Assembly: GCA_930986425.1 (NCBI GenBank)
Contig: CAKNJR010000005.1
Coordinates: 27,638-91,637, forward strand
DNA length: 64,000 nt
Direction: 5' to 3'
From: an uncultured Clostridium sp.
GTDB taxonomy: Bacteria > Bacillota > Clostridia > TANB77 > CAG-508
Each line of letters starts with the position of its first letter. Within the stretch, counting starts at the first letter, position 1. Below are positions 1,577 through 18,321 of the stretch, piece by piece. The position numbers were made by a program, and so were the translations under genes. The notes beneath the pieces were generated by a model that saw nothing but the letters and a program-made list of their open reading frames with translations, searched no databases and was not told the DNA's origin.

Positions 1577-4105
1577 TTATATTACATACCTTTTAATTAA
1601 GAATACTCCTCCAGCGATAATTGCTAATGTTCCGGCTGTTATTCCTATATATAATGGTGCGCTACCTGTTACCATTGTTAATGCTACTGGTGCATCATCT
1701 ATATCATCTTCTCCTTCTACTTTATTATTTGGAGTTGAGTCTATATCTGGTGTTTCACTTTCATTATAGTCTTCGCTTATTTCTGCTGTATTTATCATTA
1801 CTCCCATGTTCTCTTCATCATTTATCCATGTTAGTACTATTTCTACTACTGCACTTTCTCCTGGCTCTAGTAATGTATCCTTTAATGCATCTGTTACTAC
1901 TTTTCCATCTACTTCTCTCCAGCCTGGGTTATCTGCTTGATTGAATTCTAGTCCTTCTGGAATGTAGTCTGAAATTTCTGTTGCATATCCTGGTATTTCT
2001 CCTTCATTTGTTATTCTTATTTGATATCTGAATTTTATTATTGTGTTATCTATTCTGTCTTGGTTTAAGTCTACTCTTACTACTGGTTCTGGGTCTTGTT
2101 CTGCATAATGGCCTGTATCTTTTACTTTTTCTACTCCGTCTTCTATTAGTATAACTTGACTTACCCATTTTCTTAATGCTAAGTCAAAGTATTGTACATA
2201 GATTTTCTCTATATCTTGGTCATCTTCTCCATCTATCCATTCGTCCGGAGTTGAATCTATATCTTCTACCTCTTCTCCATTTTCGTCTGCATCTTCACTT
2301 ATTTCTGCTCTATTTATTATTATTCTATCTGATGTATTTGGCTCTGTTACTCTGAATGCTACTCTTACATCTTTGTAGTCAGGTGTTTCCATTGTATCTT
2401 TATCATAGGCTTGTATTAAGTTTTCCCCTAGTGTTTCTTCATTTTCTTTTGATAGATAGTCTGTTCTTATATATACTGCCTCTTCTGCATTTTCTGTTAC
2501 ATTTCCATTTGCATCATACATTACCCATCTGTATTCTTGGTTTACTTCGTTTTCCGGTAAGAATATTAATCCTTCTGGTACATCATCTTTTATTTCTTCT
2601 GCATATCCTGACATATTTCCTTCGTTGTATATTCTTATTGTATATATTACTATATCATTTTGGCATACTCTTACTGGCTCTTTTGTGTGGTTATATGTGA
2701 AGCTTGTTATTATATTGCCATTTTCATCTTCTGTTCCATAAAGAGATGTGTCTACTTGTGGTATTCTGTTTGTTATTTCTTCGTCATTTACTCCTGTGAT
2801 GAATTTTCTTAATGCTAAATCAAATTGTTTTAATATTACCTTCTCAAAATCGTCATCGTCTTCTTGTCCTGGTATATATTCGTCTCCTCTTTCTATTTCT
2901 TCATCTCTGTAATTTGGTAAGTCTTCATCTGATGGTAATACTACTTCATTTTCATTATCTCTATCTGGTATATCTAATTCATTTCTGTATTCTGTTATTT
3001 CTGCTATATTTGTTATTTCTTTTAAATATTCTGCACTATCTCTTACTCTACATTTTACTTGTATATCTGCATAATCTAATGTACTTCCTCCATTAAATGC
3101 TGTAAGTAATGTATTTCTTAGGTAGTCTGTTTCTATTGTTCTTTCATCTGTCTGCGTCCAACCATATTCCTGATTTAATTCATCATTTGGTAAGAATTCT
3201 AGTTCTGGTGGTAGATGGTCTACTATCTTTTCTACATATCCATCTACTTGTCCTTCATTATATACTCTTATTGTGTATATTACTTCGTCGCCCTTCTTTA
3301 CTTCTACTGGCTCTTTTGTATGATTGTAATTTGCTGTTGTTTCTCCATTTAATAATGGGCTTGTATCTACTTCTGGTATTCTATTTGTTACTTCTCTATC
3401 ATTTACTCCTGTGATGAATTTTCTTAGTGATAAATCAAAATATGTTGGTTCCATTATTAACTCTTCGTAGTCATCATCATCTTCATATCCTTTTCCTTTT
3501 TCTGATGTTTCTGGGTTGTAATTGTTCTTTTCTTCTTCTGTTAAATTATCTGGAGTTGAATCTACATCTTCTGTTCCTCCTAAGATGTCTTCTGCCTCTG
3601 TGATTTCTGCTACGTTTTTCAATGATATTCTTTCATCACTTGCTCTTCTTACTACTCTACACTCTATTTGTACATCTACATAATCTAAGCCATTTGTTGA
3701 ATTTGCTGTGCCTTGTATTAATGTATCTGCCAAATATCTGGTTTTTATTGTTTGTCCTTCTGCTGTCCAACCATATTGTGCATTTATACTACTTTCTGAT
3801 GCTGGTATTAACTCTAGTCCTTCTGGTAAATAGTCAGTGATTTCCTTTGCATATCCATCTATTTTTCCTTCATTGTAGATTCTTATTGTATATCTTACTA
3901 TGTTTCCTGTTTTTACGATTAGTGGTGTTTTTGTATGTGTCTTTTCTGCTGTTGTTCCATCATCAAATGTTCCTTCTCCATTTGCAACAGATTGTGCTTC
4001 ATCTTCACTTATTTGTGGTTCACGGCTTGTCTCTACTGCATTTCCATTTATATGTGTTATATATTTTCTTAATGCTAAGTCAAATGGTTGCTTTCTATTT
4101 GTAAT
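1577..4105. repeat. Segmental duplication, copy 1 (3' end of adhesin A), matching 7050..9617
   Basis: 1577-3689 corresponds to 7050-9162 (offset 5473) and 3761-4105 to 9273-9617 (offset 5512). Both minus-strand proteins and all plus-strand antisense ORFs are letter-identical across these blocks (1621..1944 = 7094..7417, 2356..2700 = 7829..8173, 2812..3096 = 8285..8569, 3109..3414 = 8582..8887). The first mismatches I read are at 3690/9163 and 4106/9618. Confidence 0.85.
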
Positions 4106-6799
4106 AATTATTGTTATTGTATTTGTTTCTTCATCATATTCCCAGTTTGTAGCTTCTGAACTTACATTAACATTCTCAAGTATATATTCTCCATTTGATA
4201 CTGTTGTATGTGCATCTACTACTATTGGACTTGTTAGTACTGAATCATATCCTGTTGGAGCTGTTGTTTCTGTAATTGTTAAACGATAATGTTCTCCTTC
4301 TCCGTATATAGGATTTGTAATATTTATTTCACCATTTTCATTTGTTGTATAACTATTTGTTGCTCTTTCGGAACTATCATTTCCTGTACTCCTGTCTTCT
4401 ATTACTGTGCTTTCTACTGTAAATACCGCACCCTGTAATTTTTTATTAGCATCATTTTCATCTTGTTTTATTATTTTTAAATTATATGAGCCTTCTAATT
4501 TTTCATTTGGTACAGTTACTTGTACAGTTAACGCTCCTGAATTATTTACTATTGTTACATCTTCGTATTCTGTTCCATCTTCTAATGTTGCATCTACACT
4601 ACTTATTGTATATTGTCCATTATTTTCTGTTTTATTTACTTTTAGAGTAATTGTTCCTGAGAATGATGAATATTCATCAGGTGGTCTAACTTCTCTTATT
4701 GTTATTGTATCTTGTGATGTTGTGTCTGTGATTGCTATATCATTTATTGAGATTTCTCCATTTTCGTCTGTTTCGACTTGTGTTTCTTGCTCATTATTTA
4801 CTTTTACTGCAAATATTGCTCCTCCTAGTTTTTCATGTGTTAGCATATCTTCTTTTATGATTTTGAAATTATAGCTTCCTGTTATTTTTGTGTTGTTTAT
4901 TGTTACTTGTACTGTATTTACTCCATCTGAACTTGTTGTTAAATTTGCATTACTACTTCCTGTTACATTACTTGCCACATATTTTCCATTTTGTTCTTCC
5001 TTCACTACTGTTAATTCTATTGGAGTATTATTTAATGCATATCCATCAGGTGCTTCTATTTCGGTAATTGTTATTGTATCTGGATTTGAAACATTTGTTA
5101 TTTGTATACTATTAATATTTATTTCTCCATTAGAATCTGTTGTGTATTCTTGTGCACTTCCTCCATTTATGCTTATATTAAATCTTGCTCCTGATAATTT
5201 ATCTTGGTTTGAAGAATCTTGTTTTATCAATTTTAATTTATATGAGCCTGAAAGTGTAGAGTTATTAACTGTAATATTTACTGTGTTTACTCCATTACTT
5301 CCTTGAGTTACATTAACACTTCCATTTTCAACTAGTCCATCATTAACATTTGAAGTAACATTACTTGCTACATATCTTCCATCTTGCAATGCTTTTGTTA
5401 CAGTCAATGTTATTGGTGTATCATTTAAAATATATCCATCAGGTGCTGTTATTTCTGTTATTGTTATTGTATCTGGATTTGATATGTCTGTAATATTTAT
5501 TCCATCTATTGTAATCTCTCCGCTTGAATCTGTAGTATATGGAGCAGCTGCGCCATTATTTATGCTTATATTAAATGTTGCTCCATCTAATTTGTTTTTA
5601 TTAGAAGAATCTTGTTTTACTAATTTAAAATTATATGAACCCGTTGGTTTTGGTAGTGTAACTTCAGATGTACTTGAATAATTTTTGTTTACTCTATCTA
5701 TAATTACTACTGGTTGATTTATTGTAAGTTCATTTTCTCCTACTGTCCACATTATTGGAGTTGTGACTTGTGTGCTTACGGAAACCTTTAACACAACATT
5801 TTCTATGTTTGTGCTTACGGGTACTGATATATAGAAGTTATTTCCTACTGTAGAATTAATTTTATCTCCTATAGTGCTTCCTGCCGTAACCTCTTGCATA
5901 TTTTGATTTAATATGCTTACATTTGAAATATCATTTGTTCCATCTGTTATTGTTGCAGATAATGTATACTCTGTATCATTATTTTTTTCTAATGTATATG
6001 GTCCTATTATATAATTGCTTCCTTGTATTTGAACTCTAACAGAGTCCGAATTTAGTGTTACCGGATTTGCCGTATTAGTTTCATAAGTATATCCATCTCT
6101 TACTGCATTTATTGCACCTTCAACTAAATAAGTATATATTGTGTCTATTTCGTTATCTACTATGTCTAAACCATATCTGTCTATAAGCGATACTCCATTT
6201 ACATATAGTTCTAATGTATTAGTATATGGATTATGATATTCTCCATCTGGGTTAGTAAAATACCATATTGCTACTTGTTCTATTGACTCTACTATATCTT
6301 CTACTGCACTTGTAGGTATTGTTCCATCTTTGAATTTACTATTACTTCCTATTCCCACTCTTTGTAAAAATTGATCCAATGTTTCTGTGTCTGGATTGTA
6401 TATATGGTCTAATACCCATACCAATTCATTATATGTTGTCATATCACTTGGTAGCTGATTTCTATATGCTCCTGTTATTGAACTTGGATTTTTTATATCA
6501 AAATATTGTGTATATGCTATAGCTGTATTATCATAATCAGCTGAGCCAAATCCTGGCCCTGCCTTTATACAGAATATTACTGTTCCATCATCATTTTCTA
6601 CTGTTCCAGAGCTGTTGTATTTCACTATATCAAATATTGATTTGTTCATAAATGTATAGTTTCCAGTTTCTCTATCAGTTGAAAATCCTTTTAGGCCCAA
6701 ATACATTGGTCCACCACTTGCTCCTTCTGATATTCCCATTGTAAAAAGCATTATTAATATTATTAAAAATATAGCTTTTAATACACTTGTTTTTTTCAT
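1577..6799 (-). CDS. Giant surface adhesin A: thioester (TQxA-type) domain, 4 CnaB-type repeats, 4 DUF11-like repeats, C-terminal TM anchor
   Basis: The track ORF is 1577..6859. I prefer ATG 6799 (MKKTSVLK, GAAGGGA 8 nt upstream) because the predicted promoter lies at 6875-6903. A signal peptide is present. Cys in VIFCIKAGPGFGS and Gln in IEQVAIWYFTNPDG match the Cys / QxA(I/V)W thioester-domain signature. Repeats are of the form GSYNFKLVKQD...TITITEITAPDGY and FDLALRK...IYNEG...NVAEI...DVDSTPDN...EDDDD. The tail is TMVTG, then a hydrophobic helix, then KRYVI. Confidence 0.85.
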   Translation of the reverse strand: MKKTSVLKAIFLIILIMLFTMGISEGASGGPMYLGLKGFSTDRETGNYTFMNKSIFDIVKYNSSGTVENDDGTVIFCIKAGPGFGSADYDNTAIAYTQYFDIKNPSSITGAYRNQLPSDMTTYNELVWVLDHIYNPDTETLDQFLQRVGIGSNSKFKDGTIPTSAVEDIVESIEQVAIWYFTNPDGEYHNPYTNTLELYVNGVSLIDRYGLDIVDNEIDTIYTYLVEGAINAVRDGYTYETNTANPVTLNSDSVRVQIQGSNYIIGPYTLEKNNDTEYTLSATITDGTNDISNVSILNQNMQEVTAGSTIGDKINSTVGNNFYISVPVSTNIENVVLKVSVSTQVTTPIMWTVGENELTINQPVVIIDRVNKNYSSTSEVTLPKPTGSYNFKLVKQDSSNKNKLDGATFNISINNGAAAPYTTDSSGEITIDGINITDISNPDTITITEITAPDGYILNDTPITLTVTKALQDGRYVASNVTSNVNDGLVENGSVNVTQGSNGVNTVNITVNNSTLSGSYKLKLIKQDSSNQDKLSGARFNISINGGSAQEYTTDSNGEININSIQITNVSNPDTITITEIEAPDGYALNNTPIELTVVKEEQNGKYVASNVTGSSNANLTTSSDGVNTVQVTINNTKITGSYNFKIIKEDMLTHEKLGGAIFAVKVNNEQETQVETDENGEISINDIAITDTTSQDTITIREVRPPDEYSSFSGTITLKVNKTENNGQYTISSVDATLEDGTEYEDVTIVNNSGALTVQVTVPNEKLEGSYNLKIIKQDENDANKKLQGAVFTVESTVIEDRSTGNDSSERATNSYTTNENGEINITNPIYGEGEHYRLTITETTAPTGYDSVLTSPIVVDAHTTVSNGEYILENVNVSSEATNWEYDEETNTITIIITNRKQPFDLALRKYITHINGNAVETSREPQISEDEAQSVANGEGTFDDGTTAEKTHTKTPLIVKTGNIVRYTIRIYNEGKIDGYAKEITDYLPEGLELIPASESSINAQYGWTAEGQTIKTRYLADTLIQGTANSTNGLDYVDVQIECRVVRRASDERISLKNVAEITEAEDILGGTEDVDSTPDNLTEEEKNNYNPETSEKGKGYEDDDDYEELIMEPTYFDLSLRKFITGVNDREVTNRIPEVDTSPLLNGETTANYNHTKEPVEVKKGDEVIYTIRVYNEGQVDGYVEKIVDHLPPELEFLPNDELNQEYGWTQTDERTIETDYLRNTLLTAFNGGSTLDYADIQVKCRVRDSAEYLKEITNIAEITEYRNELDIPDRDNENEVVLPSDEDLPNYRDEEIERGDEYIPGQEDDDDFEKVILKQFDLALRKFITGVNDEEITNRIPQVDTSLYGTEDENGNIITSFTYNHTKEPVRVCQNDIVIYTIRIYNEGNMSGYAEEIKDDVPEGLIFLPENEVNQEYRWVMYDANGNVTENAEEAVYIRTDYLSKENEETLGENLIQAYDKDTMETPDYKDVRVAFRVTEPNTSDRIIINRAEISEDADENGEEVEDIDSTPDEWIDGEDDQDIEKIYVQYFDLALRKWVSQVILIEDGVEKVKDTGHYAEQDPEPVVRVDLNQDRIDNTIIKFRYQIRITNEGEIPGYATEISDYIPEGLEFNQADNPGWREVDGKVVTDALKDTLLEPGESAVVEIVLTWINDEENMGVMINTAEISEDYNESETPDIDSTPNNKVEGEDDIDDAPVALTMVTGSAPLYIGITAGTLAIIAGGVFLIKRYVI
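4100..5650 (-). repeat. In-frame tandem CnaB/SpaA-type domain repeats (4 units) inside adhesin A
   Basis: Four units begin with (T/S/E)GSY(N/K)(F/L)K(L/I)(V/I)K(Q/E)D and contain TITI(T/R)E(I/V)xxPDxY. Confidence 0.75.
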
Positions 6800-6874
6800 A
6801 TTTTCCATCCCTTCTAACACATTAAAATTATGTAATCTTCTTTTTATATTTTTTTGCATTTTTACTTATAATAT

Positions 6875-6903
6875 ACTATATATCAACAATTTCTTTTTTT
6901 CAA
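6875..6903 (-). promoter_or_regulatory. Putative sigma-A promoter of adhesin A (TTGAAA-17-TATAGT)
   Basis: The minus strand reads TTGAAA (6903..6898), a 17-nt spacer, then TATAGT (6880..6875). The same arrangement and flanking sequence (TTGATATATAGTATATTATA) recur upstream of adhesin B. Confidence 0.4.
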
Positions 6904-6928
6904 TAACTTTTTCAATTTTTTTCAATTA

Positions 6929-6970
6929 GAAACGGTCCTTAAATGATTTTTTTCATTTAAGGACCGTTTC
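6929..6970 (-). terminator. Perfect 18-bp stem hairpin downstream of adhesin B
   Basis: GAAACGGTCCTTAAATGA, a TTTTTT loop, then TCATTTAAGGACCGTTTC. It lies 80 nt past the adhesin B stop. There is no clean U-tract on the minus strand, so terminator efficiency is uncertain. Confidence 0.5.
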
Positions 6971-7049: not shown

Positions 7050-9617
7050 TTATATTACATACCTTTTAATTAAGAATACTCCTCCAGCGATAATTGCTAA
7101 TGTTCCGGCTGTTATTCCTATATATAATGGTGCGCTACCTGTTACCATTGTTAATGCTACTGGTGCATCATCTATATCATCTTCTCCTTCTACTTTATTA
7201 TTTGGAGTTGAGTCTATATCTGGTGTTTCACTTTCATTATAGTCTTCGCTTATTTCTGCTGTATTTATCATTACTCCCATGTTCTCTTCATCATTTATCC
7301 ATGTTAGTACTATTTCTACTACTGCACTTTCTCCTGGCTCTAGTAATGTATCCTTTAATGCATCTGTTACTACTTTTCCATCTACTTCTCTCCAGCCTGG
7401 GTTATCTGCTTGATTGAATTCTAGTCCTTCTGGAATGTAGTCTGAAATTTCTGTTGCATATCCTGGTATTTCTCCTTCATTTGTTATTCTTATTTGATAT
7501 CTGAATTTTATTATTGTGTTATCTATTCTGTCTTGGTTTAAGTCTACTCTTACTACTGGTTCTGGGTCTTGTTCTGCATAATGGCCTGTATCTTTTACTT
7601 TTTCTACTCCGTCTTCTATTAGTATAACTTGACTTACCCATTTTCTTAATGCTAAGTCAAAGTATTGTACATAGATTTTCTCTATATCTTGGTCATCTTC
7701 TCCATCTATCCATTCGTCCGGAGTTGAATCTATATCTTCTACCTCTTCTCCATTTTCGTCTGCATCTTCACTTATTTCTGCTCTATTTATTATTATTCTA
7801 TCTGATGTATTTGGCTCTGTTACTCTGAATGCTACTCTTACATCTTTGTAGTCAGGTGTTTCCATTGTATCTTTATCATAGGCTTGTATTAAGTTTTCCC
7901 CTAGTGTTTCTTCATTTTCTTTTGATAGATAGTCTGTTCTTATATATACTGCCTCTTCTGCATTTTCTGTTACATTTCCATTTGCATCATACATTACCCA
8001 TCTGTATTCTTGGTTTACTTCGTTTTCCGGTAAGAATATTAATCCTTCTGGTACATCATCTTTTATTTCTTCTGCATATCCTGACATATTTCCTTCGTTG
8101 TATATTCTTATTGTATATATTACTATATCATTTTGGCATACTCTTACTGGCTCTTTTGTGTGGTTATATGTGAAGCTTGTTATTATATTGCCATTTTCAT
8201 CTTCTGTTCCATAAAGAGATGTGTCTACTTGTGGTATTCTGTTTGTTATTTCTTCGTCATTTACTCCTGTGATGAATTTTCTTAATGCTAAATCAAATTG
8301 TTTTAATATTACCTTCTCAAAATCGTCATCGTCTTCTTGTCCTGGTATATATTCGTCTCCTCTTTCTATTTCTTCATCTCTGTAATTTGGTAAGTCTTCA
8401 TCTGATGGTAATACTACTTCATTTTCATTATCTCTATCTGGTATATCTAATTCATTTCTGTATTCTGTTATTTCTGCTATATTTGTTATTTCTTTTAAAT
8501 ATTCTGCACTATCTCTTACTCTACATTTTACTTGTATATCTGCATAATCTAATGTACTTCCTCCATTAAATGCTGTAAGTAATGTATTTCTTAGGTAGTC
8601 TGTTTCTATTGTTCTTTCATCTGTCTGCGTCCAACCATATTCCTGATTTAATTCATCATTTGGTAAGAATTCTAGTTCTGGTGGTAGATGGTCTACTATC
8701 TTTTCTACATATCCATCTACTTGTCCTTCATTATATACTCTTATTGTGTATATTACTTCGTCGCCCTTCTTTACTTCTACTGGCTCTTTTGTATGATTGT
8801 AATTTGCTGTTGTTTCTCCATTTAATAATGGGCTTGTATCTACTTCTGGTATTCTATTTGTTACTTCTCTATCATTTACTCCTGTGATGAATTTTCTTAG
8901 TGATAAATCAAAATATGTTGGTTCCATTATTAACTCTTCGTAGTCATCATCATCTTCATATCCTTTTCCTTTTTCTGATGTTTCTGGGTTGTAATTGTTC
9001 TTTTCTTCTTCTGTTAAATTATCTGGAGTTGAATCTACATCTTCTGTTCCTCCTAAGATGTCTTCTGCCTCTGTGATTTCTGCTACGTTTTTCAATGATA
9101 TTCTTTCATCACTTGCTCTTCTTACTACTCTACACTCTATTTGTACATCTACATAATCTAAGTTACTTACTGGTGTTTGTCCATTTGTTGCTCCATCATT
9201 TTCTTCTACATTGCTTCCTGTTCCTCTTATTAAAGTGTCTGCTAAGTATGTTGTTGTTACTTCTCTACCATTTGCTGTCCAACCATATTGTGCATTTATA
9301 CTACTTTCTGATGCTGGTACTAACTCTAGTCCTTCTGGTAAATAGTCAGTGATTTCCTTTGCATATCCATCTATTTTTCCTTCATTGTAGATTCTTATTG
9401 TATATCTTACTATGTTTCCTGTTTTTACGATTAGTGGTGTTTTTGTATGTGTCTTTTCTGCTGTTGTTCCATCATCAAATGTTCCTTCTCCATTTGCAAC
9501 AGATTGTGCTTCATCTTCACTTATTTGTGGTTCACGGCTTGTCTCTACTGCATTTCCATTTATATGTGTTATATATTTTCTTAATGCTAAGTCAAATGGT
9601 TGCTTTCTATTTGTAAT
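7050..9617. repeat. Segmental duplication, copy 2 (3' end of adhesin B)
   Basis: See copy 1. It is interrupted by a divergent patch at 9163-9272, which is 39 nt longer than the patch in copy 1. Confidence 0.85.
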
Positions 9618-12600
9618 TGTTATTGTTATTGTATTTGTTTCTTCATCAAATGACCAATTTGTATTTTGTGGACTTGCTGTTATATTTTCTAGCATATATT
9701 GTTCATTAGTTATTGTACTATATGCATCAATTATAATTGGCTCTGTTATTAGAGTATCATATCCTGTTGGAGCTATTGTTTCAGTAATTGTTAAACGATA
9801 ATGTTCGTCATTTGCATTTATAGGATTTGTAATGTTTATTTCGCCATTTTCGTTTGTAATATAACTGTGTGTGCTTTCTTCTCCATTAACACTGGTTGTA
9901 ATATCAAATGTTGCTCCTTTAAGTTTTTTACTTTCATCATTTTCATCTTGTTTTATTATCTTTAAATTATATAATCCTTCTACCTTTTCATTTGGTATCT
10001 TTACCTGTACTGTCATGTTTCCATCAATGTTTGTTAATCCTATATCATCATAGTTTGTTTCACCATCTAAGGTTGCTTCTACATTATTTACTAAATATTT
10101 TCCATTATCTTCTATTTTATCTATCTTTAATATAATTGTTCCTTCAAAAGATGAATATTCATCTGGTGGTTTTACTTCTCTTATTGTTATTGTATCTTGC
10201 GATGTTGTGTCTGTTATTGCTATATCATTTATTGAGATTTCTCCATTTTTGTCTGTTTCGACTTGTGTTTCTTCTTCATTATTTACTTTTACTGCAAATA
10301 TAGCTCCACCTAATTTTTCTCCTGTTGTTTTATCTTCTTTAATGATTCTAAAATCGTAATTTCCAGTTATTTTTGTGTTATTTATTGCTATATTTACTGT
10401 GTTTACTCCATCTTGGCTTGTCGTTAAATTTGCATTGTTACTTCCTGTTACATTACTTGCTACATATTTTCCATTTTGTTCTTCTTTTATTACTGTTAAT
10501 TCTATTGGAGTATTATCTAATACATATCCATCTGGTGCTTCTATTTCTGTAATTGTTATTGTATCTGGATTTGAAACATTTGTTATTTGTATACTATTAA
10601 TATTTATTTCTCCATTAGAATCTGTTGTGTATTCTTGTGCACTTCCTCTATTTATGCTTATATTAAATCTTGCTCCTAATAATTTATCTTGGTTTGAAGA
10701 ATCTTGTTTTATCAATTTTAATTTATATGACCCTGAAAGTGTAGAGTTATTAACTGTAATATTTACTGTGTTTACTCCATTGCTTCCTTGAGTTATATTG
10801 ACACTTCCACTTTCAACTAGACCATCATTAACATTTGAAGTAACATTGCTTGCCACATATTTATCCGATTGTTCTTCTTTACTTATGGTTAGTGTTATCG
10901 GTTCATTATTTAGAATATATCCTTCTAATGTTTCTATTTCTTCTATTACTATTGTGTCATCTGTTGTGTCTGTTATTATGATATCATTGATTTGAACTTC
11001 ACCATTTGAATTTGTTGTGTATTCTCTTGCACCCTTTTCGTTTATGTTAATATTGAATTTTACCCCTTGTAGCTTTTGGGTTGTTGTTGCATCTTGTTTT
11101 ATTAATTTTAAGTTATATGAGCCATCTTTATTAGTATTATTTACAATAATTTCTACTGTATTTACTCCATCTGGATTTGTTACTAAATTAGCATTATTAC
11201 TTCCTGTTACGTTGCTTGCTACATAACGGTTTTCTTGTTCTTCCTTGCTTACTGTTAATGTTATTGGGTTTGAATTTAGAATATATCCCTCTAATGTTTC
11301 TATTTCTTCTATTACTATTGTATCATTAGATGTATTTGTTATTTCTATATTACTAATTTCGATTTCTCCGTTAGCATTTGTTGTGTATTCTTGTGCGCCT
11401 TCTCCATTTACTTTAATTCTAAATTTTACACCTTCTAGTTTTTGACTATTTTGTGCATCTTGCTTTATTAATTTTAAATTGTATGAACCTGTTTTTCTCG
11501 TATTATTTAATGTAACTTGTACTGTATTTTCTCCTATTATTTCTGCTATATCTTGCGAGCCTACTGGTTTACTCATACTTACTGATTCTACTTTATATTG
11601 TCCATCTATTTCTGTCTTTTTTACGATTATTGTAATTGGTTCTTCATTTAGAATGTATCCATTTATTGTTTCTATTTCTTCTATTACTATTGTGTCGTCT
11701 GTTGTATCTTCAATTTTAATGCCACTAATTTGAATTTCTCCATTTGAATTTGTTGTGTATTCTTTTGCACCTTCTCCATTTACATTAATATTGAATTTTA
11801 CTCCTTGCAACTTTTGTGTAGTTGTTTCATCTTGCTTTATTAGTTTTAAGTTATATGAGCCTTCTATTTTTTCATTCGGTATTGTTACCTCTACTGTTAC
11901 TTTTCCTGCGTTGTTTACTATTTCTACTCCTTCATGTTCTGTTCCATCTTCTAATGTTGCTTTTACATTATTTACTGTGTATTTTCCGTTTTCTTCTATT
12001 TTATCTACTTTTAATGTAATTGTTCCTGAAAATGATGAGTATTCATCTGGTGGTTGGATTTCTCTTATTGTTATTGTATCTTGTGTGTTTGTGTCTGTTA
12101 TTGCTATATCTTCTATTGAGATTTCTCCACTACTATTTGTTTCTATTTGTCTTTCTTCTTCATTATTTACTTTTACTGCAAATATTGCTCCTCCTAGTGT
12201 TTCTCCTGTTGTTTTATCTTCCTTTATTATTTTGAAATTATAGCTTCCCGTTATTTTTGTATTGTCTACTGTTATTTGAACTGTATTTATTCCATCTACA
12301 CCAGTGGTTAAACTTGCATTACTGTTTCCTGTTACGTTGCTTGCCACATATCTGCCGTTTTGTAGTGATTTTGTTATTGTCAGTGTAATTGGAGTACTAT
12401 TTAATATATATCCATCAGGTGCTTCTATTTCTGTAATTGTTATTGTGTCATTACTTGATATATCTGTTATGCTTATTCCATTTATGGTAATTTCGCCACT
12501 TGAATTTGTCGTATATGTTGTTGTTTGTCCATTATTTACTCTAATGCTAAATCTTGCTCCATTTAATTTATTTTGATTTAAAGCATCCTGCTTTATTAAT

Positions 12601-13784
12601 TTAAAGTTATATGAGCCTGTTATATTAGGTAATGTTACTTCTGATGAGCTTGAATAACTTTTGTTCACTTCGTCAATTACTACTACTGGTTGGTTTATTG
12701 CAAGTTCATTAGCTCCTACTGTCCATAATAGAGGGGTATTTACTCTAGTACTTACTGATATTTCTAATCTGACTTTTTCTATATCTGTATTAACTGGTAC
12801 TGATAAATAAAAATTATTTCCTACTGTAGAGTTTATTTTTTCTCCTATTGTACTGCCTTGTGTAATTTCACTTTTATTTCTATCTAAAATTTTTACATTT
12901 GAAATATTACTAGTTCCATCAGTTACAGTTGCTGATAATGTATATGCTGTATCATTATTTCTTTCTATTGTATATGGTCCTATAATATAATTGTTTCCTT
13001 CAATTGTGGTTGTTACTGAATTAGAATTAAGTGTTACAGGATTTACTGTATTACTATTATATGTGTAACCACCTCTTACAGCAGTTATTGCTCCTTCTAC
13101 AAAATATGTGTAAATTGTATCTATCTCATTATCAACGATATCTAGCCCATATTTATCTATTAATGATTCGCTATCTACATATAATTCTAATGTATTAGTA
13201 TATGGATTGTGATACTCTCCACTCGGATTAGTAAAATACCAAATTGCAACCTGCTCTATTGATTCAACTATATCTCTTACTTCGTTTGCTGGTATTGTTC
13301 CATTTCTAAAATCACTACTTCTCCATATTCCAGTTCTTTCTAGGAAGTCATCCATTGATTCATTTTCCGGATTATATAGATGGTCAAGTACCCAAACCAA
13401 TTGATTATATGTTGTCATATTTGTAGGTAATTGATTTCTGTATGAATCTTGAGTTCCTTCTGCAAAGCTCGAACTTTTTATATCAAAATATTGTGTATAG
13501 CTTATTACATCATTTGAATACGATTCTGAACCAAATCCCGCTCCTGCTTTTACACAAAAGATAACTGTTCCATCATCATTTTCTGTTGTTCCTGAAGAAT
13601 TAAATTTTACAATTTTAAACACAGATTTATTTAGGAAAGAATATTCTCCAGTTGCTCTTGCTGTCGATTTTCCTTTCAATCCCAAATATAATGGACCTCC
13701 ACTTGCTGCTTTAGAAATAGTAACCCCTACTAATAGTGCAAAGATTAGTGTAATTATTATCCTTAGTAATTTTTTCATTTTCAT
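7050..13784 (-). CDS. Giant surface adhesin B: thioester (TQxA-type) domain, 8 CnaB-type repeats, 4 DUF11-like repeats, C-terminal TM anchor
   Basis: 2244-aa ORF with an AGAGGGG RBS and signal peptide MKMKKLLRIIITLIFALLVGVTISKA. Thioester signature VIFCVKAGAGFGS / IEQVAIWYFTNPSG. Eight GSYNxK(L/I)IK(Q/E)D units and four FDL(A/S)LRK units. The last roughly 700 aa are identical to adhesin A. Confidence 0.9.
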   Translation of the reverse strand: MKMKKLLRIIITLIFALLVGVTISKAASGGPLYLGLKGKSTARATGEYSFLNKSVFKIVKFNSSGTTENDDGTVIFCVKAGAGFGSESYSNDVISYTQYFDIKSSSFAEGTQDSYRNQLPTNMTTYNQLVWVLDHLYNPENESMDDFLERTGIWRSSDFRNGTIPANEVRDIVESIEQVAIWYFTNPSGEYHNPYTNTLELYVDSESLIDKYGLDIVDNEIDTIYTYFVEGAITAVRGGYTYNSNTVNPVTLNSNSVTTTIEGNNYIIGPYTIERNNDTAYTLSATVTDGTSNISNVKILDRNKSEITQGSTIGEKINSTVGNNFYLSVPVNTDIEKVRLEISVSTRVNTPLLWTVGANELAINQPVVVIDEVNKSYSSSSEVTLPNITGSYNFKLIKQDALNQNKLNGARFSIRVNNGQTTTYTTNSSGEITINGISITDISSNDTITITEIEAPDGYILNSTPITLTITKSLQNGRYVASNVTGNSNASLTTGVDGINTVQITVDNTKITGSYNFKIIKEDKTTGETLGGAIFAVKVNNEEERQIETNSSGEISIEDIAITDTNTQDTITIREIQPPDEYSSFSGTITLKVDKIEENGKYTVNNVKATLEDGTEHEGVEIVNNAGKVTVEVTIPNEKIEGSYNLKLIKQDETTTQKLQGVKFNINVNGEGAKEYTTNSNGEIQISGIKIEDTTDDTIVIEEIETINGYILNEEPITIIVKKTEIDGQYKVESVSMSKPVGSQDIAEIIGENTVQVTLNNTRKTGSYNLKLIKQDAQNSQKLEGVKFRIKVNGEGAQEYTTNANGEIEISNIEITNTSNDTIVIEEIETLEGYILNSNPITLTVSKEEQENRYVASNVTGSNNANLVTNPDGVNTVEIIVNNTNKDGSYNLKLIKQDATTTQKLQGVKFNININEKGAREYTTNSNGEVQINDIIITDTTDDTIVIEEIETLEGYILNNEPITLTISKEEQSDKYVASNVTSNVNDGLVESGSVNITQGSNGVNTVNITVNNSTLSGSYKLKLIKQDSSNQDKLLGARFNISINRGSAQEYTTDSNGEININSIQITNVSNPDTITITEIEAPDGYVLDNTPIELTVIKEEQNGKYVASNVTGSNNANLTTSQDGVNTVNIAINNTKITGNYDFRIIKEDKTTGEKLGGAIFAVKVNNEEETQVETDKNGEISINDIAITDTTSQDTITIREVKPPDEYSSFEGTIILKIDKIEDNGKYLVNNVEATLDGETNYDDIGLTNIDGNMTVQVKIPNEKVEGLYNLKIIKQDENDESKKLKGATFDITTSVNGEESTHSYITNENGEINITNPINANDEHYRLTITETIAPTGYDTLITEPIIIDAYSTITNEQYMLENITASPQNTNWSFDEETNTITITITNRKQPFDLALRKYITHINGNAVETSREPQISEDEAQSVANGEGTFDDGTTAEKTHTKTPLIVKTGNIVRYTIRIYNEGKIDGYAKEITDYLPEGLELVPASESSINAQYGWTANGREVTTTYLADTLIRGTGSNVEENDGATNGQTPVSNLDYVDVQIECRVVRRASDERISLKNVAEITEAEDILGGTEDVDSTPDNLTEEEKNNYNPETSEKGKGYEDDDDYEELIMEPTYFDLSLRKFITGVNDREVTNRIPEVDTSPLLNGETTANYNHTKEPVEVKKGDEVIYTIRVYNEGQVDGYVEKIVDHLPPELEFLPNDELNQEYGWTQTDERTIETDYLRNTLLTAFNGGSTLDYADIQVKCRVRDSAEYLKEITNIAEITEYRNELDIPDRDNENEVVLPSDEDLPNYRDEEIERGDEYIPGQEDDDDFEKVILKQFDLALRKFITGVNDEEITNRIPQVDTSLYGTEDENGNIITSFTYNHTKEPVRVCQNDIVIYTIRIYNEGNMSGYAEEIKDDVPEGLIFLPENEVNQEYRWVMYDANGNVTENAEEAVYIRTDYLSKENEETLGENLIQAYDKDTMETPDYKDVRVAFRVTEPNTSDRIIINRAEISEDADENGEEVEDIDSTPDEWIDGEDDQDIEKIYVQYFDLALRKWVSQVILIEDGVEKVKDTGHYAEQDPEPVVRVDLNQDRIDNTIIKFRYQIRITNEGEIPGYATEISDYIPEGLEFNQADNPGWREVDGKVVTDALKDTLLEPGESAVVEIVLTWINDEENMGVMINTAEISEDYNESETPDIDSTPNNKVEGEDDIDDAPVALTMVTGSAPLYIGITAGTLAIIAGGVFLIKRYVI
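9612..12630 (-). repeat. In-frame tandem CnaB/SpaA-type domain repeats (8 units) inside adhesin B
   Basis: Eight units with the GSYNFK/GSYNLK/GSYKLK/GNYDFR start motif. Some units are near-identical to units of adhesin A (antisense ORFs 4890..5306 and 10375..10791 are near-identical). Confidence 0.75.
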
Positions 13785-13864
13785 TTTTTACCCCTCTGTT
13801 TTCTTTTTAATTAATTTACATCGTTATTGTTTTATATTATTTTTCGACATTTTATCTATAATAT

Positions 13865-13893
13865 ACTATATATCAAGAATTTATTTTTTTCAA
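13865..13893 (-). promoter_or_regulatory. Putative sigma-A promoter of adhesin B (TTGAAA-17-TATAGT)
   Basis: The minus strand reads TTGAAA (13893..13888), a 17-nt spacer, then TATAGT (13870..13865). It is homologous to the adhesin A promoter block. Confidence 0.4.
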
Positions 13894-13956
13894 TATTTGT
13901 TAAAATTTTTATTATTTAAAATGCTACTTATTATATTCTATTTTCATTGGTAAAAA

Positions 13957-13984
13957 AATAATCGCTCTTTTTTGAGTGATTATT
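13957..13984 (-). terminator. Rho-independent terminator after adhesin C
   Basis: On the minus strand, AATAATCACTC - loop - GAGCGATTATT is followed by TTTTTTT. One G-U pair. It lies 60 nt downstream of the adhesin C stop. Confidence 0.55.
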
Positions 13985-14042
13985 TTTTATAGCTTCATCA
14001 ATATGTTTTTCATATTGTATTGAAATTTATAGTTAATTCAGA

Positions 14043-14654
14043 TTATATTACATATCTTTTTATTAAGAATACTCCTCCAGCGATAATTGCTAATGTTCCG
14101 GCTGTTATTCCTATATATAATGGTGCGCTACCTGTTACCATTGTTAATGCTACTGGTGCATCATCTATATCATCTTCTCCTTCTACTTTATTATTTGGAG
14201 TTGAGTCTATATCTGGTGTTTCACTTTCATTATAGTCTTCGCTTATTTCTGCTGTATTTATCATTACTCCCATGTTCTCTTCATCATTTATCCATGTTAG
14301 TACTATTTCTACTACTGCACTTTCTCCTGGCTCTAGTAATGTATCCTTTAATGCATCTGTTACTACTTTTCCATCTACTTCTCTCCAGCCTGGGTTATCT
14401 GCTTGATTGAATTCTAGTCCTTCTGGAATGTAGTCTGAAATTTCTGTTGCATATCCTGGTATTTCTCCTTCATTTGTTATTCTTATTTGATATCTGAATT
14501 TTATTATTGTGTTATCTATTCTGTCTTGGTTTAAGTCTACTCTTACTACTGGTTCTGGGTCTTGTTCTGCATAATGGCCTGTATCTTTTACTTTTTCTAC
14601 TCCGTCTTCTATTAGTATAACTTGACTTACCCATTTTCTTAATGCTAAGTCAAA
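14043..14654. repeat. Segmental duplication, copy 3 (3' end of adhesin C), shared by all three adhesin genes
   Basis: About 14067-14654 equals 7074-7661 (offset 6993) and 1601-2188. Antisense ORF 14087..14410 is identical to 7094..7417 and 1621..1944. The first mismatch I read is at 14655/7662. The last 8 codons are synonymous-variant. Confidence 0.8.
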
Positions 14655-17600
14655 ATATTGTACGTAGATTTGCTCTATATCTTGGTCATCTTCTCCGTCT
14701 ATCCATTCATCTGGAGTTGAATCTATATCTGTAACATCTTCTCCCTCTGAGTCGCTATCATCACTAATTTCAGCTCTGTTTATTATTATTCTGTCTGATG
14801 TATTTGGCTCTGTTACTCTGAATGCTACTCTTACATCTCTGTAATCTGGCCCTTCCATTGTTTCTGCATCATATGCTTGTAATAAGTTTTCTCCTTCTGT
14901 CTCTTCTTGTGCTTTTGATAAATAGTCTGTTCTTATATATGCTGCCTCATTCGCATTTTCTGTTACATTTCCATTCGCATCATACATTACCCATCTGTAT
15001 TCTTGGTTTACTTCGTTTTCCGGTAAGAATATTAATCCTTTTGGTACATCATCTTTTATTTCTTCTGCATATCCTGACATTGTTCCTTCATTGTAGATTC
15101 TTATTGTATAGATTACTATATCATTTTGGCATACTCTTACAGGGTCTTTTGTATGATTATATGTGAAGTTAGTAATTAAATTGCCCTCTTCATCTGTTGT
15201 TCCATATAATGATGTATCTACTTCTGGAACTCTGTTTGTTATTTCTTCGTCATTTACTCCAGTAATAAATTTTCTTAATGCTAAATCAAATTTTTGCAAT
15301 ATTACTTTTTCAAAGTCGTCATCATCTTCTTGTCCTGGTATATATGCTATTCCAGAATTTATTTCTTCATTTTTATAATTTGGTAATTCTTCATCTGATG
15401 GTAAAACTACATCTCTCGCATTATCTCTATCTATTAAATTAGATTCATTACTATATTTTGTAATTTCTGCGATATTAGTAATGTTAGTTAATGTTGGTGC
15501 TGTATTTACAACTCTACATCTAATTTTTACTTCTTTATAGCTTAATGAGTTTGTATTTGAGTCAAATGCTGGTATAACATTTTCTACATCATTTTCTCTT
15601 GATAATATACTTGTTCTAAGAGTTCTTTGAGTTTCGTCTGATGTATCTATTATCCATCCATACTCGGCATTCAAATCATCATTTACTATAAATTCTAAGT
15701 ATGGTGGTAAGTGCTCTACTATTTCGTCAACATATCCATCTACTTGGCCTTCATTATATACTCTTATTGTATAAGTTACTATGTCGCCTGCTTCAACACT
15801 TACAGGATTCTTTGTATGATTATATGTTGCTGTTGTTTCTCCTGAAAGTAATGGATTAACATCTACCTCAGGCTCTCTGTTTGTTATTTCTCTATCATTT
15901 ATTGCTGTTATAAATTTTCTAAGTGAAAGGTCAAAATATTTTCCAAGCATAACTAGTTCTTCATAATCATCATCATCTTGATATCCTTTTCCTTCTTCTG
16001 ATGTTCCTGGAAGATAGTTATTTATTTCGTTATTAGTTAAGTTACCTGTTTCTGAATCCCTGTCTACTCTTCCACCTGTAATGTCATGTGCTCCAAGTAT
16101 TTCAGCAACATTCTTCAAAGAAACATCTTGCTCTGCAACATCTTTTGTTACTCTACATTCTATTTGTACATCTACATAATCAATAGTATATACTCCATTG
16201 TCTGGGTCTTTATCAAAAGCAGATATTAGAGTATCTTTTAAATAATCTGTTACTACTGCTTGTCGTGAAGTAGTGCTTCCATCAGTTGATACTGGTTCAG
16301 ATGCATATTCTGTCCAACCATATTTTGTATTAATTGTACTTTCACTTGCATCTACTAATTCTAATCCTGCTGGCAAGTAATCAATTATTGTATCAGCATA
16401 TCCATCTATATCCCCCTCGTTGTATATCCTGATTGTATATATTATTCTGTCATCTTTATCTACAACTAAAGGTGTTTTTGTATGAGTTTTTGTAACTGTT
16501 GTTCCATTGTCAAAATCAGCTGTTCCTGTTGCTAATGCTCTTAAATCCTCTTGTGTAATTTTAGGTTCACGGCTTACTTTTACTGGTGAGCCATTTATTG
16601 AAGTTATAAATTTTCTAAGTGCTAAGTCAAATTCTGGATTTGTTATTTGTATTGTTGTTGCGTCTCTATAATTTTGTTTATCTCTTGAAATTATTACGAC
16701 TGGTTGATTATTGGCTAAGCTTGCTTGTCCTACTGTCCAAAGTGTTTGTGTTGTATTATAATATTCTGCATTAACAGCTAATGTTGCATCTGTAATATTT
16801 GATGATATTGGAATTGAAATGTAAAAATTATTTCCAATTGTTGTTTGTATTTTTTCTGTTAAATTACTTCCAGTTGTTATTTCTTGTCTATTTTCATCTA
16901 ATACTTTTGCATTAGATATTGTTCCAGTAGAGCTGTATAACTCTGCTGATAAATTGTATTCTCCATTTGATTGTTCTTCTATTCTATAAGGTCCTAATAT
17001 ATAGTTTGAATTGTCCATTGTTAATGTTGCTTGATTTTTTATAAATGTTATTGGTGATGTTCCAATAATTGAATCTTCATAAGTATATCCACCATTAACT
17101 GCGTCAATTGCTCCTTGTACTAAATAATGATATATTGCATCAATCTCATTTTCTACTATATCTAGTCCGTATTTATCTATTAAAGATTCTCCATCAACAG
17201 CGATTTCTACTGTTTCTGTTGAATCATTATGATATTCTCCATCTGGATTTGTAAAATACCAAATCGCTACTTGTTGTATACATTCTAATATATCTTCTAT
17301 TTCTTGACCATATGTTGCACTATCTCTTAAGAAGCTATCTTCTGAAACTCCTGCATTATCTAGTAAATTTTGTTTTGATTCATTTGCAAGTGCTATTTCA
17401 TCTGATGTAGCTCCTGTTTTTGCTGGAATATATAAGTGGTCTAGTACCCATATCAACTCATTATATGTTGTCATATCTGTTGGAAGAGATTCTCTATATG
17501 GTGATTCAATTGCATCTGGATTTTTCATATTAAAATATTGTGTATAATTTACTATTGTATTTTGATATGATTCTGAACCAAATCCTGGTCCTGCTTTTAC

Positions 17601-17834
17601 ACAGTATATTGAAGCATTATCTCCTACCTCTGTTGTTCCTGTGCTATTATTATATTTTACAATTTTGAATATATCTTTTGAATTAAAAGTATATCTTCCT
17701 GTTTCTCTTTCTGTTGTTCTTCCTTTTAAGCCCAAATATATACCATTAACATCACTTACAGCATAATTATTTGTTGTAAACAATAAAATGGTTATTAAAA
17801 TTATTCCTATAATTACTCCTAATTTTTTTGTCAT
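14043..17834 (-). CDS. Surface adhesin C: thioester (TQxA-type) domain directly followed by 4 DUF11-like repeats, same C-terminal anchor
   Basis: The track ORF is 14043..17852. ATG 17834 (MTKKLGVIIG, AGAGAGG 7 nt upstream) is preferred because the predicted -10 box is at 17872-17877. Thioester signature SIYCVKAGPGFGS / IQQVAIWYFTNPDG. No CnaB repeats. The last roughly 200 aa are identical to A and B. Confidence 0.85.
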   Translation of the reverse strand: MTKKLGVIIGIILITILLFTTNNYAVSDVNGIYLGLKGRTTERETGRYTFNSKDIFKIVKYNNSTGTTEVGDNASIYCVKAGPGFGSESYQNTIVNYTQYFNMKNPDAIESPYRESLPTDMTTYNELIWVLDHLYIPAKTGATSDEIALANESKQNLLDNAGVSEDSFLRDSATYGQEIEDILECIQQVAIWYFTNPDGEYHNDSTETVEIAVDGESLIDKYGLDIVENEIDAIYHYLVQGAIDAVNGGYTYEDSIIGTSPITFIKNQATLTMDNSNYILGPYRIEEQSNGEYNLSAELYSSTGTISNAKVLDENRQEITTGSNLTEKIQTTIGNNFYISIPISSNITDATLAVNAEYYNTTQTLWTVGQASLANNQPVVIISRDKQNYRDATTIQITNPEFDLALRKFITSINGSPVKVSREPKITQEDLRALATGTADFDNGTTVTKTHTKTPLVVDKDDRIIYTIRIYNEGDIDGYADTIIDYLPAGLELVDASESTINTKYGWTEYASEPVSTDGSTTSRQAVVTDYLKDTLISAFDKDPDNGVYTIDYVDVQIECRVTKDVAEQDVSLKNVAEILGAHDITGGRVDRDSETGNLTNNEINNYLPGTSEEGKGYQDDDDYEELVMLGKYFDLSLRKFITAINDREITNREPEVDVNPLLSGETTATYNHTKNPVSVEAGDIVTYTIRVYNEGQVDGYVDEIVEHLPPYLEFIVNDDLNAEYGWIIDTSDETQRTLRTSILSRENDVENVIPAFDSNTNSLSYKEVKIRCRVVNTAPTLTNITNIAEITKYSNESNLIDRDNARDVVLPSDEELPNYKNEEINSGIAYIPGQEDDDDFEKVILQKFDLALRKFITGVNDEEITNRVPEVDTSLYGTTDEEGNLITNFTYNHTKDPVRVCQNDIVIYTIRIYNEGTMSGYAEEIKDDVPKGLIFLPENEVNQEYRWVMYDANGNVTENANEAAYIRTDYLSKAQEETEGENLLQAYDAETMEGPDYRDVRVAFRVTEPNTSDRIIINRAEISDDSDSEGEDVTDIDSTPDEWIDGEDDQDIEQIYVQYFDLALRKWVSQVILIEDGVEKVKDTGHYAEQDPEPVVRVDLNQDRIDNTIIKFRYQIRITNEGEIPGYATEISDYIPEGLEFNQADNPGWREVDGKVVTDALKDTLLEPGESAVVEIVLTWINDEENMGVMINTAEISEDYNESETPDIDSTPNNKVEGEDDIDDAPVALTMVTGSAPLYIGITAGTLAIIAGGVFLIKRYVI

Positions 17835-17871
17835 AATTTGACCTCTCTTCATATATTATTATACAATTTAT

Positions 17872-18282: not shown

Positions 18283-18321
18283 ACGACGAATCTGTTCGAA
18301 CTAATAGAACAGTATTGATAC

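Follow-up and report, generated by a model that had tools for sequence, protein, structure and literature searches.

In the described thioester domains (TEDs) of Gram-positive bacteria, the thioester is formed between the Cys of a [YFL]C-hydrophobic-hydrophilic motif and the Gln of a weak motif on the last strand; the Gln and Trp of a helical TQxxΦW motif adjoin the thioester and are not required for the bond, and the TEDs examined by mass spectrometry all carried it (PMC6194298, PMC4450167). Fibrillar adhesins of the thioester/isopeptide (TIE) type are abundant in metagenomes (PMC9210967), and DUF11, renamed CLIPPER, carries a Lys-Asn isopeptide bond in fibrillar-adhesin stalks (PMC12617251). 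In TIEpLS20, the Cys is essential for function and no sortase signal is present (PMC8092201). Here we analysed a stretch of 64,000 nt (the window) from an uncultured Clostridium sp. (assembly GCA_930986425.1, contig CAKNJR010000005.1, positions 27,638 to 91,637). We found a triad of adjacent genes, g1, g2 and g3, which in our judgement are likely to encode secreted TIE-type fibrillar adhesins, each carrying a class II-like TED on an isopeptide-type stalk, with three stalk lengths among them. Domain composition, fold similarity, residue conservation, synteny and repeat identity were observed, and the covalent bonds, the anchoring route and the target are inferred. The locus is a well-conserved addition to a known adhesin class and not a new kind of system, all its domains being caught by existing profiles.

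Thioester-domain heads of the three proteins

A preliminary description of this DNA had proposed three adjacent minus-strand genes for thioester-domain adhesins on modular CnaB-type and DUF11 stalks of different length. We confirmed three uninterrupted and adjacent open reading frames (ORFs) at these places (Table 1), which are paralogues with a joint span of 16,276 nt, and the TED profile, the fold and the repeat counts agreed with the proposed architecture. The N-terminus of each protein is a typical Sec signal peptide, followed by a head of ~360 aa. With the Pfam TED profile (PF08341, gathering score 22), the isolated heads scored 24.8 (g1), 21.4 (g2) and 18.9 bits (g3), with E-values from 3e-5 to 2e-3; in this check, suggested beforehand, the hits were marginal, the g1 head scoring above the gathering score and the other two below it. 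The same profile was matched by 33 of 33 scanned relatives at E<=0.01, the best at 1.3e-10.

An AlphaFold2 model of g1 ORF residues 49-405, built from a 14-sequence alignment, reached pLDDT 90.1 and pTM 0.81. Through Foldseek comparison with the PDB, we found that the matches below E 1e-2 were TEDs only (probability 0.98-1.00), namely 6FWY (E. faecium TIE86, 6.7e-11) and 6FWV (B. anthracis BaTIE, 2.4e-10), both of class II, and the class I SfbI TED 5A0L as the fifth structural match (E 3e-3). Class II structures outranked class I by 7 orders of E-value. Beyond its last helix (189-206), the model consists of beta-strands only (219-353), the final two being 18-19 residues long; this is the class II pattern of a beta-sandwich insert and a terminal hairpin, though about 40-60 residues larger, and the sandwich exceeds the class II insert of ~75 residues. 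The modelled fold supports the heads of g1, g2 and g3 as class II-like thioester domains, and it is only this comparison of a predicted structure that ties them to the solved TEDs. A Gram-positive TED had been correctly recognised in the preliminary description; the Cpa/SfbI/FbaB class named there did not hold, the nearest structures being those of class II (TIE86 and BaTIE).

The Cys motif was present in all three heads (IFCIKAGPGFGS, IFCVKAGAGFGS and IYCVKAGPGFGS), with I at its first position in each of them and not I or Y as had been written. Its core (FCIK, FCVK or YCVK) fits the TED pattern, and the invariant Cys (C97 in g1, C77 in g2, C84 in g3) lies at the end of model strand 46-49. 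The sequence (E/Q)QVAIWYFTNP, placed earlier about 100 aa past the Cys, comes 98, 101 and 110 residues after it in the three heads. It sits on model helix 135-154 and corresponds to TQxxΦW with the Thr replaced by E or Q. The preliminary description had joined it to the Cys motif as the TED signature. However, the bond-forming Gln of known TEDs lies on the last strand and not in TQxxΦW (PMC6194298, PMC4450167), and (E/Q)QVAIW is therefore an auxiliary motif.

The likely bond-forming Gln is instead that of an NQPVV motif (Q382 in g1, Q365 in g2, Q383 in g3), 285-299 residues past the Cys, judging from the alignment and the model. It is Q334 in domain numbering, at the start of the last long model strand (336-353) and 23 residues before the head end, the position expected for a class II TED. 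NQPVV fits the last-strand pattern hydrophobic-Q-hydrophilic-hydrophobic-hydrophobic, but its middle residue Pro is not hydrophilic. The resemblance is not due to chance: the Cys, the Gln and Trp of QxAIW and the downstream QP were kept in 148-156 of 155-158 aligned homologous heads (auxiliary Gln 155/158, Trp 156/158, NQPVV Gln 148/155, its Pro 152/155). The Cys is invariant in both curated alignments, A1 and A2 (33/33 in A2), in proteins which contain a total of only 4-5 Cys each.

As a weaker substitute for a measured Cys-Gln distance, we used mean-field direct coupling analysis (DCA) on 195 non-redundant heads, with an effective number of sequences (Neff) of ~183. The top 40 couplings included five between N-lobe strands and the hairpin tip (I30-V336, L6-V336, I47-I338, I50-M322 and I66-N333; expected 1.07, hypergeometric p 0.004) and none between the N-lobe and the sandwich body (expected 4.4). 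Two other couplings, V46-E143 and F48-E146, connect the strand that bears the Cys with the helix of QVAIW. This pattern agrees with a slipknot-like fold in which the Gln hairpin loops back to lie beside the Cys. From the conserved residues and the fold, we infer an internal Cys-Gln thioester in the heads, and the head would probably act as a self-activating "chemical harpoon".

Stalks and proposed mechanism

The SpaA profile PF17802 matched four stretches in g1 (E 2.7e-41), eight in g2 (E 1e-81) and none in g3, just the 4, 8 and 0 CnaB-type units of the preliminary description. Its four DUF11-like units per protein were also recovered, with four TIGR01451 stretches in each protein and PF01345 at E 6e-13 to 8.7e-19, and the SpaA and DUF11 profiles, which it had recommended as a check, gave these matches. 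By regular-expression mapping, the SpaA units measured 122-136 aa and the DUF11 units 146-232 aa, and every DUF11 unit opens with FDL[AS]LRK and closes in an acidic ED(D/Q/I)D block. The ending D(V/I)DSTP(D/N)N, formerly ascribed to every unit, was present in units 1, 3 and 4 of g1 and g2 (unit 3 as DIDSTPDE) and in units 3 and 4 of g3, while unit 2, and also unit 1 of g3, have DRDNE.. or DRDSE.. instead.

All 12 SpaA units keep a Lys (K9, on the first strand), the Glu of 'I.E' and an Asn on the last or penultimate strand, which is the layout of the CnaB isopeptide triad. The eight distinct DUF11 units share K7, E68 and N171 without exception, together with an acidic D-x-D...EDDxD tail. A model of g1 DUF11 unit 3 (pLDDT 90.2, pTM 0.88) had the CLIPPER domain 9IFR as its best PDB match, and pilin structures were also among the fold matches. 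Considering the invariant Lys, acid and Asn together with the 9IFR match, the stalk is most likely a chain of Ig-like domains locked by isopeptide bonds.

In the mechanism that we propose, the Sec signal peptide would export each protein and the C-terminal tail would hold it at the cell surface. Four CnaA-like DUF11/CLIPPER domains and 0, 4 or 8 CnaB-like SpaA domains, each probably locked by a Lys-Asn isopeptide, would set three different spacings between the TED and the cell. In the head, the Cys and the NQPVV Gln would form the internal thioester, with the long Gln-bearing beta-hairpin folding back from the enlarged beta-sandwich onto the N-terminal barrel and the QQxAIW helix beside the bond. 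A nucleophile of the target, for example a Lys amine, would then open the thioester, and the bacterium would become covalently tethered. Host ligands, which the preliminary description named as the target, are an unproven assumption.

Evolution of the array

The 3' parts of g1 and g2 are an exact direct repeat of 2113 nt, and a block of 593 nt is identical in all three genes (Table 1). This block begins exactly at the last DUF11 unit and stops 19 nt before the stop codon. The heads are more different, with 73% identity between g1 and g2 and 53% between g1 and g3. Since the heads differ and the last DUF11 unit and anchor are identical, the array would offer different specificities and reaches on a common base. 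From the fifth SpaA unit of g2 onward, g1 aligns to g2 with 91% nucleotide identity; therefore g2 can be described as a gene of g1 type that has four more units. In the four closest related genomes we found only a pair of g3-type and g1-type genes, and in more distant ones a single g3-type gene. Therefore the 8-unit gene g2 is a lineage-specific addition, for which the closest relatives have no equivalent.

Identical or near-identical 3' ends of paralogues were also found in independent metagenome-assembled genomes (MAGs), over about 1200 nt in one locus (L007) and at 92-99% in another (L001). The identity of the 2113 nt in g1 and g2 indicates gene conversion, and its recurrence in other MAGs argues that this conversion is a recurrent, family-wide trait which keeps the last DUF11 unit and the anchor uniform, and that no assembly artefact is involved.

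C-terminal tail and sortase

All three proteins end in ...EDDIDDAPVALTMVTGSAPLYIGITAGTLAIIAGGVFLIKRYVI. In 102 full-length relatives the tail follows the consensus E-D-D-I-D-D-A-P-V-x-L-[ST]-[IV]-x-T-G, with T in 81 and G in 92 of them. The distance from the xTG motif to the tail end was 29-31 residues in 88 of the 102 (exactly 29 in 59), and the tail closes with IKK[YF]V[LI]. It has the three-part layout of a sortase signal, that is, the xTG motif, a hydrophobic helix and a basic tail. Among all ORFs of 150 aa or more, in the window as in 74 related loci, none was found to combine LPXTG with a tripartite tail. Of the two possible anchoring routes, a sortase-type signal built on a non-canonical [ST][IV]xTG motif is more likely than a simple membrane helix.

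The only sortase gene of the window is located among housekeeping genes (nrdDG, ksgA and a penicillin-binding protein (PBP) gene), and the His, the Cys of TLITC and the Arg are present in its product. It fits no NCBIfam class, the best being class C with 52 bits against 160. This sortase is a candidate processing enzyme for the xTG tail, with DDAPVALTMVTGSAPL as candidate peptide substrate.

Genomic context and family distribution

The host replicon is a chromosome of low-GC, gut-type Clostridia. The coordinates of the features are collected in Table 1.

Table 1. Features of the adhesin locus and its surroundings (positions in the window)
Feature	Position	Strand	Remarks
g3	14043-17852	-	1269 aa; signal peptide, TED head, four DUF11/CLIPPER units, putative C-terminal anchor, no SpaA unit
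g3 signal peptide and TED head	16632-17852	-	Cys84 17601-17603; auxiliary Gln194 17271-17273; candidate bond-forming Gln383 (NQPVV) 16704-16706
g3 four DUF11/CLIPPER units	14217-16631	-	15936-16631, 15291-15935, 14655-15290, 14217-14654
g2	7050-13784	-	2244 aa; signal peptide, TED head, eight SpaA/CnaB-type units, four DUF11 units, putative anchor
g2 signal peptide and TED head	12618-13784	-	Cys77 13554-13556; Gln178 13251-13253; candidate bond-forming Gln365 12690-12692
g2 eight SpaA/CnaB-type units	9597-12617	-	122-130 aa each
g2 four DUF11/CLIPPER units	7224-9596	-	PF01345/TIGR01451 and unit mapping
g1	1577-6859	-	ORF of 1760 aa; signal peptide, TED head, four SpaA units, four DUF11 units, putative anchor
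g1 signal peptide and TED head	5642-6859	-	Cys97 6569-6571; Gln195 6275-6277; candidate bond-forming Gln382 5714-5716
g1 four SpaA/CnaB-type units	4085-5641	-	PF17802 and unit mapping
g1 four DUF11/CLIPPER units	1751-4084	-	Unit 3, 2189-2824, modelled
Putative C-terminal anchoring signal	1580-1750; identical copies 7053-7223 and 14046-14216	-	...EDDIDDAPVALTMVTG, hydrophobic helix, KRYVI
Exact direct repeat, 2113 nt	1577-3689 = 7050-9162		3' parts of g1 and g2
Block identical in all three genes, 593 nt	1596-2188 = 7069-7661 = 14062-14654		Last DUF11 unit and anchor
333-aa membrane protein gene	556-1557	-	Starts 19 nt after g1; Lys-rich cytoplasmic N-terminus, one transmembrane helix, Ig-like repeats
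Receiver-GGDEF (diguanylate cyclase-type) gene, 5' part	1-522	-	Cut by window edge; next downstream neighbour, 47/74 loci
tRNA-Gly(GCC), tRNA-Cys(GCA)	18041-18116, 18209-18282	+	Pair between carboxypeptidase and adhesin genes, kept in relatives
Block of ~7 kb	18283-25600 (approx.)		Between tRNA-Cys and S11 carboxypeptidase gene; absent from relatives
Large serine recombinase	18858-20777	+	In ~7-kb block
MobV/Mob_Pre relaxase	21051-22445	+	In ~7-kb block
Transglutaminase-like protein	22899-24257	+	In ~7-kb block, beside small ORFs
Type IV secretion system (T4SS)-like cluster	30242-47786		12 kb from adhesins
VirB6-like membrane proteins, three paralogues	33070-35667; 35681-38839; 41138-42331		T4SS-like cluster; the second with N-terminal alpha/beta-hydrolase
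NlpC/P60	38939-39886		T4SS-like cluster
VirB4	42346-44298		T4SS-like cluster
PrgI/VirB3-like gene	45523-45975		T4SS-like cluster
VirB2/TrbC-type pilins, two	45991-46368; 47319-47786		T4SS-like cluster
Sortase gene	55631-56356	-	Only sortase in window

We read promoter-like and terminator sequences directly from the DNA. A hairpin with a T-run lies 3' of g3 and of g2, and separate promoter-like sequences, with a box common to both genes, lie 5' of g2 and g1; the genes thus look individually transcribed. Consensus scans for promoters and terminators gave signal at background level only. The first ATG of the g1 ORF (6859) abuts the promoter-like -10 box and MKKTSVLK... at 6799 is preceded by a Shine-Dalgarno sequence, so the start of g1 is more likely at 6799, which would give a product of 1740 aa. 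At Rfam gathering thresholds, the whole window contained two tRNAs only and no riboswitch (e.g. for cyclic di-GMP (c-di-GMP)) upstream of any gene.

Through exhaustive profile search, we found that the head family comprises 758 clusters at 50% identity, and a genome scan gave 359 genomic stretches. A word-indexed homologue search returned 11 relatives only, so that the profile search and the genome scan were needed to see the family. The hosts are nearly all uncultured gut Clostridia MAGs (human, rabbit, mouse and ruminant), including one closed chromosome of 1.57 Mb, and the homologous heads have diverged to ~25-35% identity. We found no source naming these proteins.

Neighbourhoods were counted in 74 related loci. 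The most constant neighbour is the 333-aa membrane protein gene, directly downstream on the same strand in 48 of them with a median gap of 137 nt. Its product has three Ig-like repeats with weak Big_13/CE2_N matches, no NCBIfam match and none in a PDB sequence search, and may assist or partner the adhesin. The receiver-GGDEF gene comes next and hints at c-di-GMP-linked control of the adhesin locus. Beyond it, the relatives have mraZ-rsmH-ftsL-PBP, assigned by reading the neighbour sequences, the GGDEF gene alone having been profile-checked. On the upstream side, a gene for an S11 D-Ala-D-Ala carboxypeptidase was found in 18 of the 74 loci, and the five loci that were scanned for tRNAs also had tRNA-Gly and tRNA-Cys there. 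The conserved order is carboxypeptidase, tRNA-Gly/Cys, adhesin, 333-aa protein, GGDEF and then dcw genes. Considering this conserved housekeeping-side neighbourhood, the adhesins are core chromosomal genes and not cargo of a mobile element. The orientation of the tRNA pair relative to the adhesin varies, being the same in L001, L026 and L030 and opposite in L002, L004 and the window. Pfam revealed no domains in four conserved upstream neighbours (c5, c12, c18 and c19) of distant loci.

In the window, a block of ~7 kb separates tRNA-Cys from the carboxypeptidase gene, and with its recombinase and relaxase genes it is probably an integrative mobilisable element. Five relatives have the carboxypeptidase, tRNA-Gly/Cys and adhesin genes without this block; the gene at 24807-25508 may be ancestral, since a homologue of it is retained in L004. 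We searched for direct repeats flanking the putative insertion and found none of at least 13 nt.

Farther upstream lies the T4SS-like cluster, in which no relaxase or coupling protein was recognised. Its proximity to the adhesins is of interest, since conjugation of pLS20 requires a class II TED adhesin (PMC8092201); the link between adhesins and cluster is positional and partial. Two adjacent genes for M16-family peptidases, at 47826-50363 and 50515-52002 (both on the minus strand), were also noted, one with only the inactive domain recognised; together with a PMT_2-type glycosyltransferase gene they are located between the T4SS-like cluster and nrdDG.

Alternative explanations

Several observations weigh against reading the triad as TIE-type adhesins. 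TIGR03934 (TQXA_dom), which the preliminary description had named as a check, gave 11.1 and 14.0 bits against a cut-off of 30.4 and nothing for g3, and these sub-threshold matches cover nine residues only (QVAIWYFTN). The Pfam TED profile stayed under its gathering score for two of the three isolated heads and for all full-length proteins (19.3, 17.9 and 16.6 bits for g1, g2 and g3), and a search of the head against the PDB by sequence, with a single sequence and two profiles, gave no relevant match. The Foldseek TM-scores were modest (0.36-0.44; 0.29-0.45 for the TED matches below E 1e-2), which is consistent with a larger and diverged head. The head is ~80-100 aa larger than the solved class II TEDs, and its Cys-Gln spacing is 285-299 residues against 171-204 in known TEDs. 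The DCA regions were defined after seeing the secondary structure of the model, and the alignment was shallow for this purpose. As for anchoring, LPXTG is absent from all three proteins, the tail stayed below the cut-off of the sorting-signal models (NF058582 (LAVTG) 16.4 against 27; TIGR01167 12.6-14.5 against 15.9), and the sole sortase seen in the window is unclassifiable and 38 kb from the adhesins.

The marginal profile scores with the failure of TIGR03934, the replacement of T in TQxxW by E/Q, and a head larger than and diverged from all solved TEDs would also suit a TED-like fold without thioester, which binds its ligand non-covalently and keeps the Cys and Gln for structural reasons only. 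We consider this improbable, since the Cys and both Gln are near-invariant across a family of ~25-35% identity whose proteins are otherwise Cys-poor, the couplings put the Gln hairpin next to the Cys strand, and the bond was present in all TEDs tested by mass spectrometry (PMC4450167, PMC6194298). That the proteins are subunits of a sortase-polymerised pilus and not single-chain fibrillar adhesins is very improbable. The SpaA units weakly match the SpaH/EbpB major-pilin model (63-125 bits, cut-off 95; eight stretches in g2), but these matches are repeats of one CnaB domain, and the pilin structures among the DUF11 fold matches are to be set against the absence of the YPK pilin motif from all three proteins. 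There is no adjacent class C sortase, the distant window sortase scoring 52 against 160 for that class, and proteins of 1269-2244 aa that each carry a tip-type head are in keeping with fibrillar adhesins. Even less credible is an assembly artefact, in which a mis-joined or duplicated repeat turned two real genes into three. The perfect identity of g1 and g2 over 2113 nt and the two genes only in the closest relatives could suggest it, but g2 has a separate head (73% identical to that of g1), four additional and distinct SpaA units, and a promoter-like region and terminator to itself, and the independent MAGs L007 and L001 show the same identical or near-identical paralogue 3' ends.

The alternative to which we give most room concerns the target. 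The adhesins might bind other bacteria and not the host, working with the T4SS-like apparatus in mating-pair or cell contact as in pLS20; we regard this as possible but rather unlikely. The VirB4/VirB3/VirB2/VirB6-like/NlpC-P60 cluster lies in the same window at 30-47 kb, Gram-positive T4SSs depend on surface adhesins (bioRxiv 10.1101/2025.01.22.634366), and among the 27 loci with at least 8 kb of upstream sequence, cluster homologues were found upstream of the adhesin in 10, and they were also found in the three closest relatives. On the other hand, the other 17 loci have no such neighbours, six of them having clpC/mcsAB and a PBP gene instead, and the carboxypeptidase gene stands between adhesin and cluster in the 10 loci (plus tRNA genes in five loci checked). 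The genes after the adhesin are of the housekeeping side in 47-48 of 74 loci, neither coupling protein nor relaxase was found in the cluster, and the "T4SS-like" labels in distant loci depend on homology to weakly annotated window proteins. Going further, we might speculate on a large unnamed class II-like clade from uncultured, small-genome gut Clostridia (at least 758 clusters at 50% identity), with the triad as its type example and with an undescribed sorting signal (APVxL[ST][IV]xTG, helix, IKK[YF]V[LI]) and an unclassified sortase, which acts with a chromosomal, relaxase-less T4SS-like apparatus and a c-di-GMP regulator in covalent cell-to-cell attachment (mating or epibiont-like contact) and not in host-matrix binding; this we hold to be decidedly unlikely.

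Comparison with known systems

Thioester adhesins have been studied almost only in pathogens, and the TIE-type triad described here would be a deeply conserved chromosomal version in uncultured gut Clostridia. In this locus, stalks of three lengths exist side by side, with two to three variants of the head and a shared base apparently homogenised by gene conversion; it supplies concrete residues (C97, Q382 and their equivalents) and a defined non-LPXTG tail. Its conserved neighbourhood, with the Ig-like membrane partner, the GGDEF regulator and the T4SS-like cluster, could guide work on commensal attachment to the host or to other cells. For protein engineering, in which TED and isopeptide domains already serve as covalent tags, the domains may likewise be of interest.

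The class II TIE proteins BaTIE (6FWV), EfmTIE86 (6FWY) and S. aureus SaTIE (PMC6194298) are the best and only strong structural matches of the window head, with undetectable sequence similarity. They likewise have a signal peptide, a [YF]C-hydrophobic-hydrophilic Cys motif, a QxxΦW helix, a beta-sandwich before the terminal Gln hairpin, an isopeptide-type Ig stalk and C-terminal anchoring. However, their heads are of 249-276 aa against ~357 aa here, with a Cys-Gln spacing of 171-204 against 285-299, and they have T in the TQ motif and LPXTG where the window proteins have E/Q and the [ST][IV]xTG tail. Unlike them, the window stalks hold four DUF11/CLIPPER units and the proteins are much larger (1269-2244 aa). 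The class I TEDs of Cpa, SfbI and FbaB (S. pyogenes) and of CpTIE (C. perfringens) share the same proposed chemistry and the tip-on-stalk logic (PMC4450167), but are without the beta-sandwich insertion of the window head, and the SfbI target fibrinogen is not transferable to the window proteins.

TIEpLS20, encoded by gene 34 of the B. subtilis plasmid pLS20 (PMC8092201), resembles the window proteins in its class II-type TED, its Cna-type stalk, the lack of a canonical LPXTG and the T4SS genes nearby. It is plasmid-borne in a conjugation operon, with 778 aa and a 'toast-rack'-like C-terminal region without transmembrane helix, whereas the window genes belong to the chromosome, where their neighbourhood is conserved and non-mobile, and the tail of their products contains such a helix. 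Conjugation adhesins such as TIEpLS20 and PrgB lie inside a transfer operon with relaxase and coupling protein, which is not the case for the window genes. The cluster of the window resembles the relaxase-less, VirB2-containing monoderm-type T4SS of Patescibacteria (bioRxiv 10.1101/2025.01.22.634366).

In the stalk, the DUF11 units are like the CLIPPER domain of the Acinetobacter adhesin B9T28_05395 (9IFR, PMC12617251) in the first-strand Lys and the late-strand Asn (Lys715-Asn806 bond in 9IFR) and in their tandem arrangement. The 9IFR domain has ~121 aa against 146-232 aa in the window units, which have long acidic D-x-D...EDDxD tails between units, are without the disulfide motif and have E68 as candidate catalytic acid. 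In periscope proteins (for example SasG and Rib; PMC9704523), the reach is likewise set by the number of near-identical repeats, and long DNA repeats are substrates for recombination. The length variants of the present locus, however, are three coexisting genes with different heads and not alleles of one gene.

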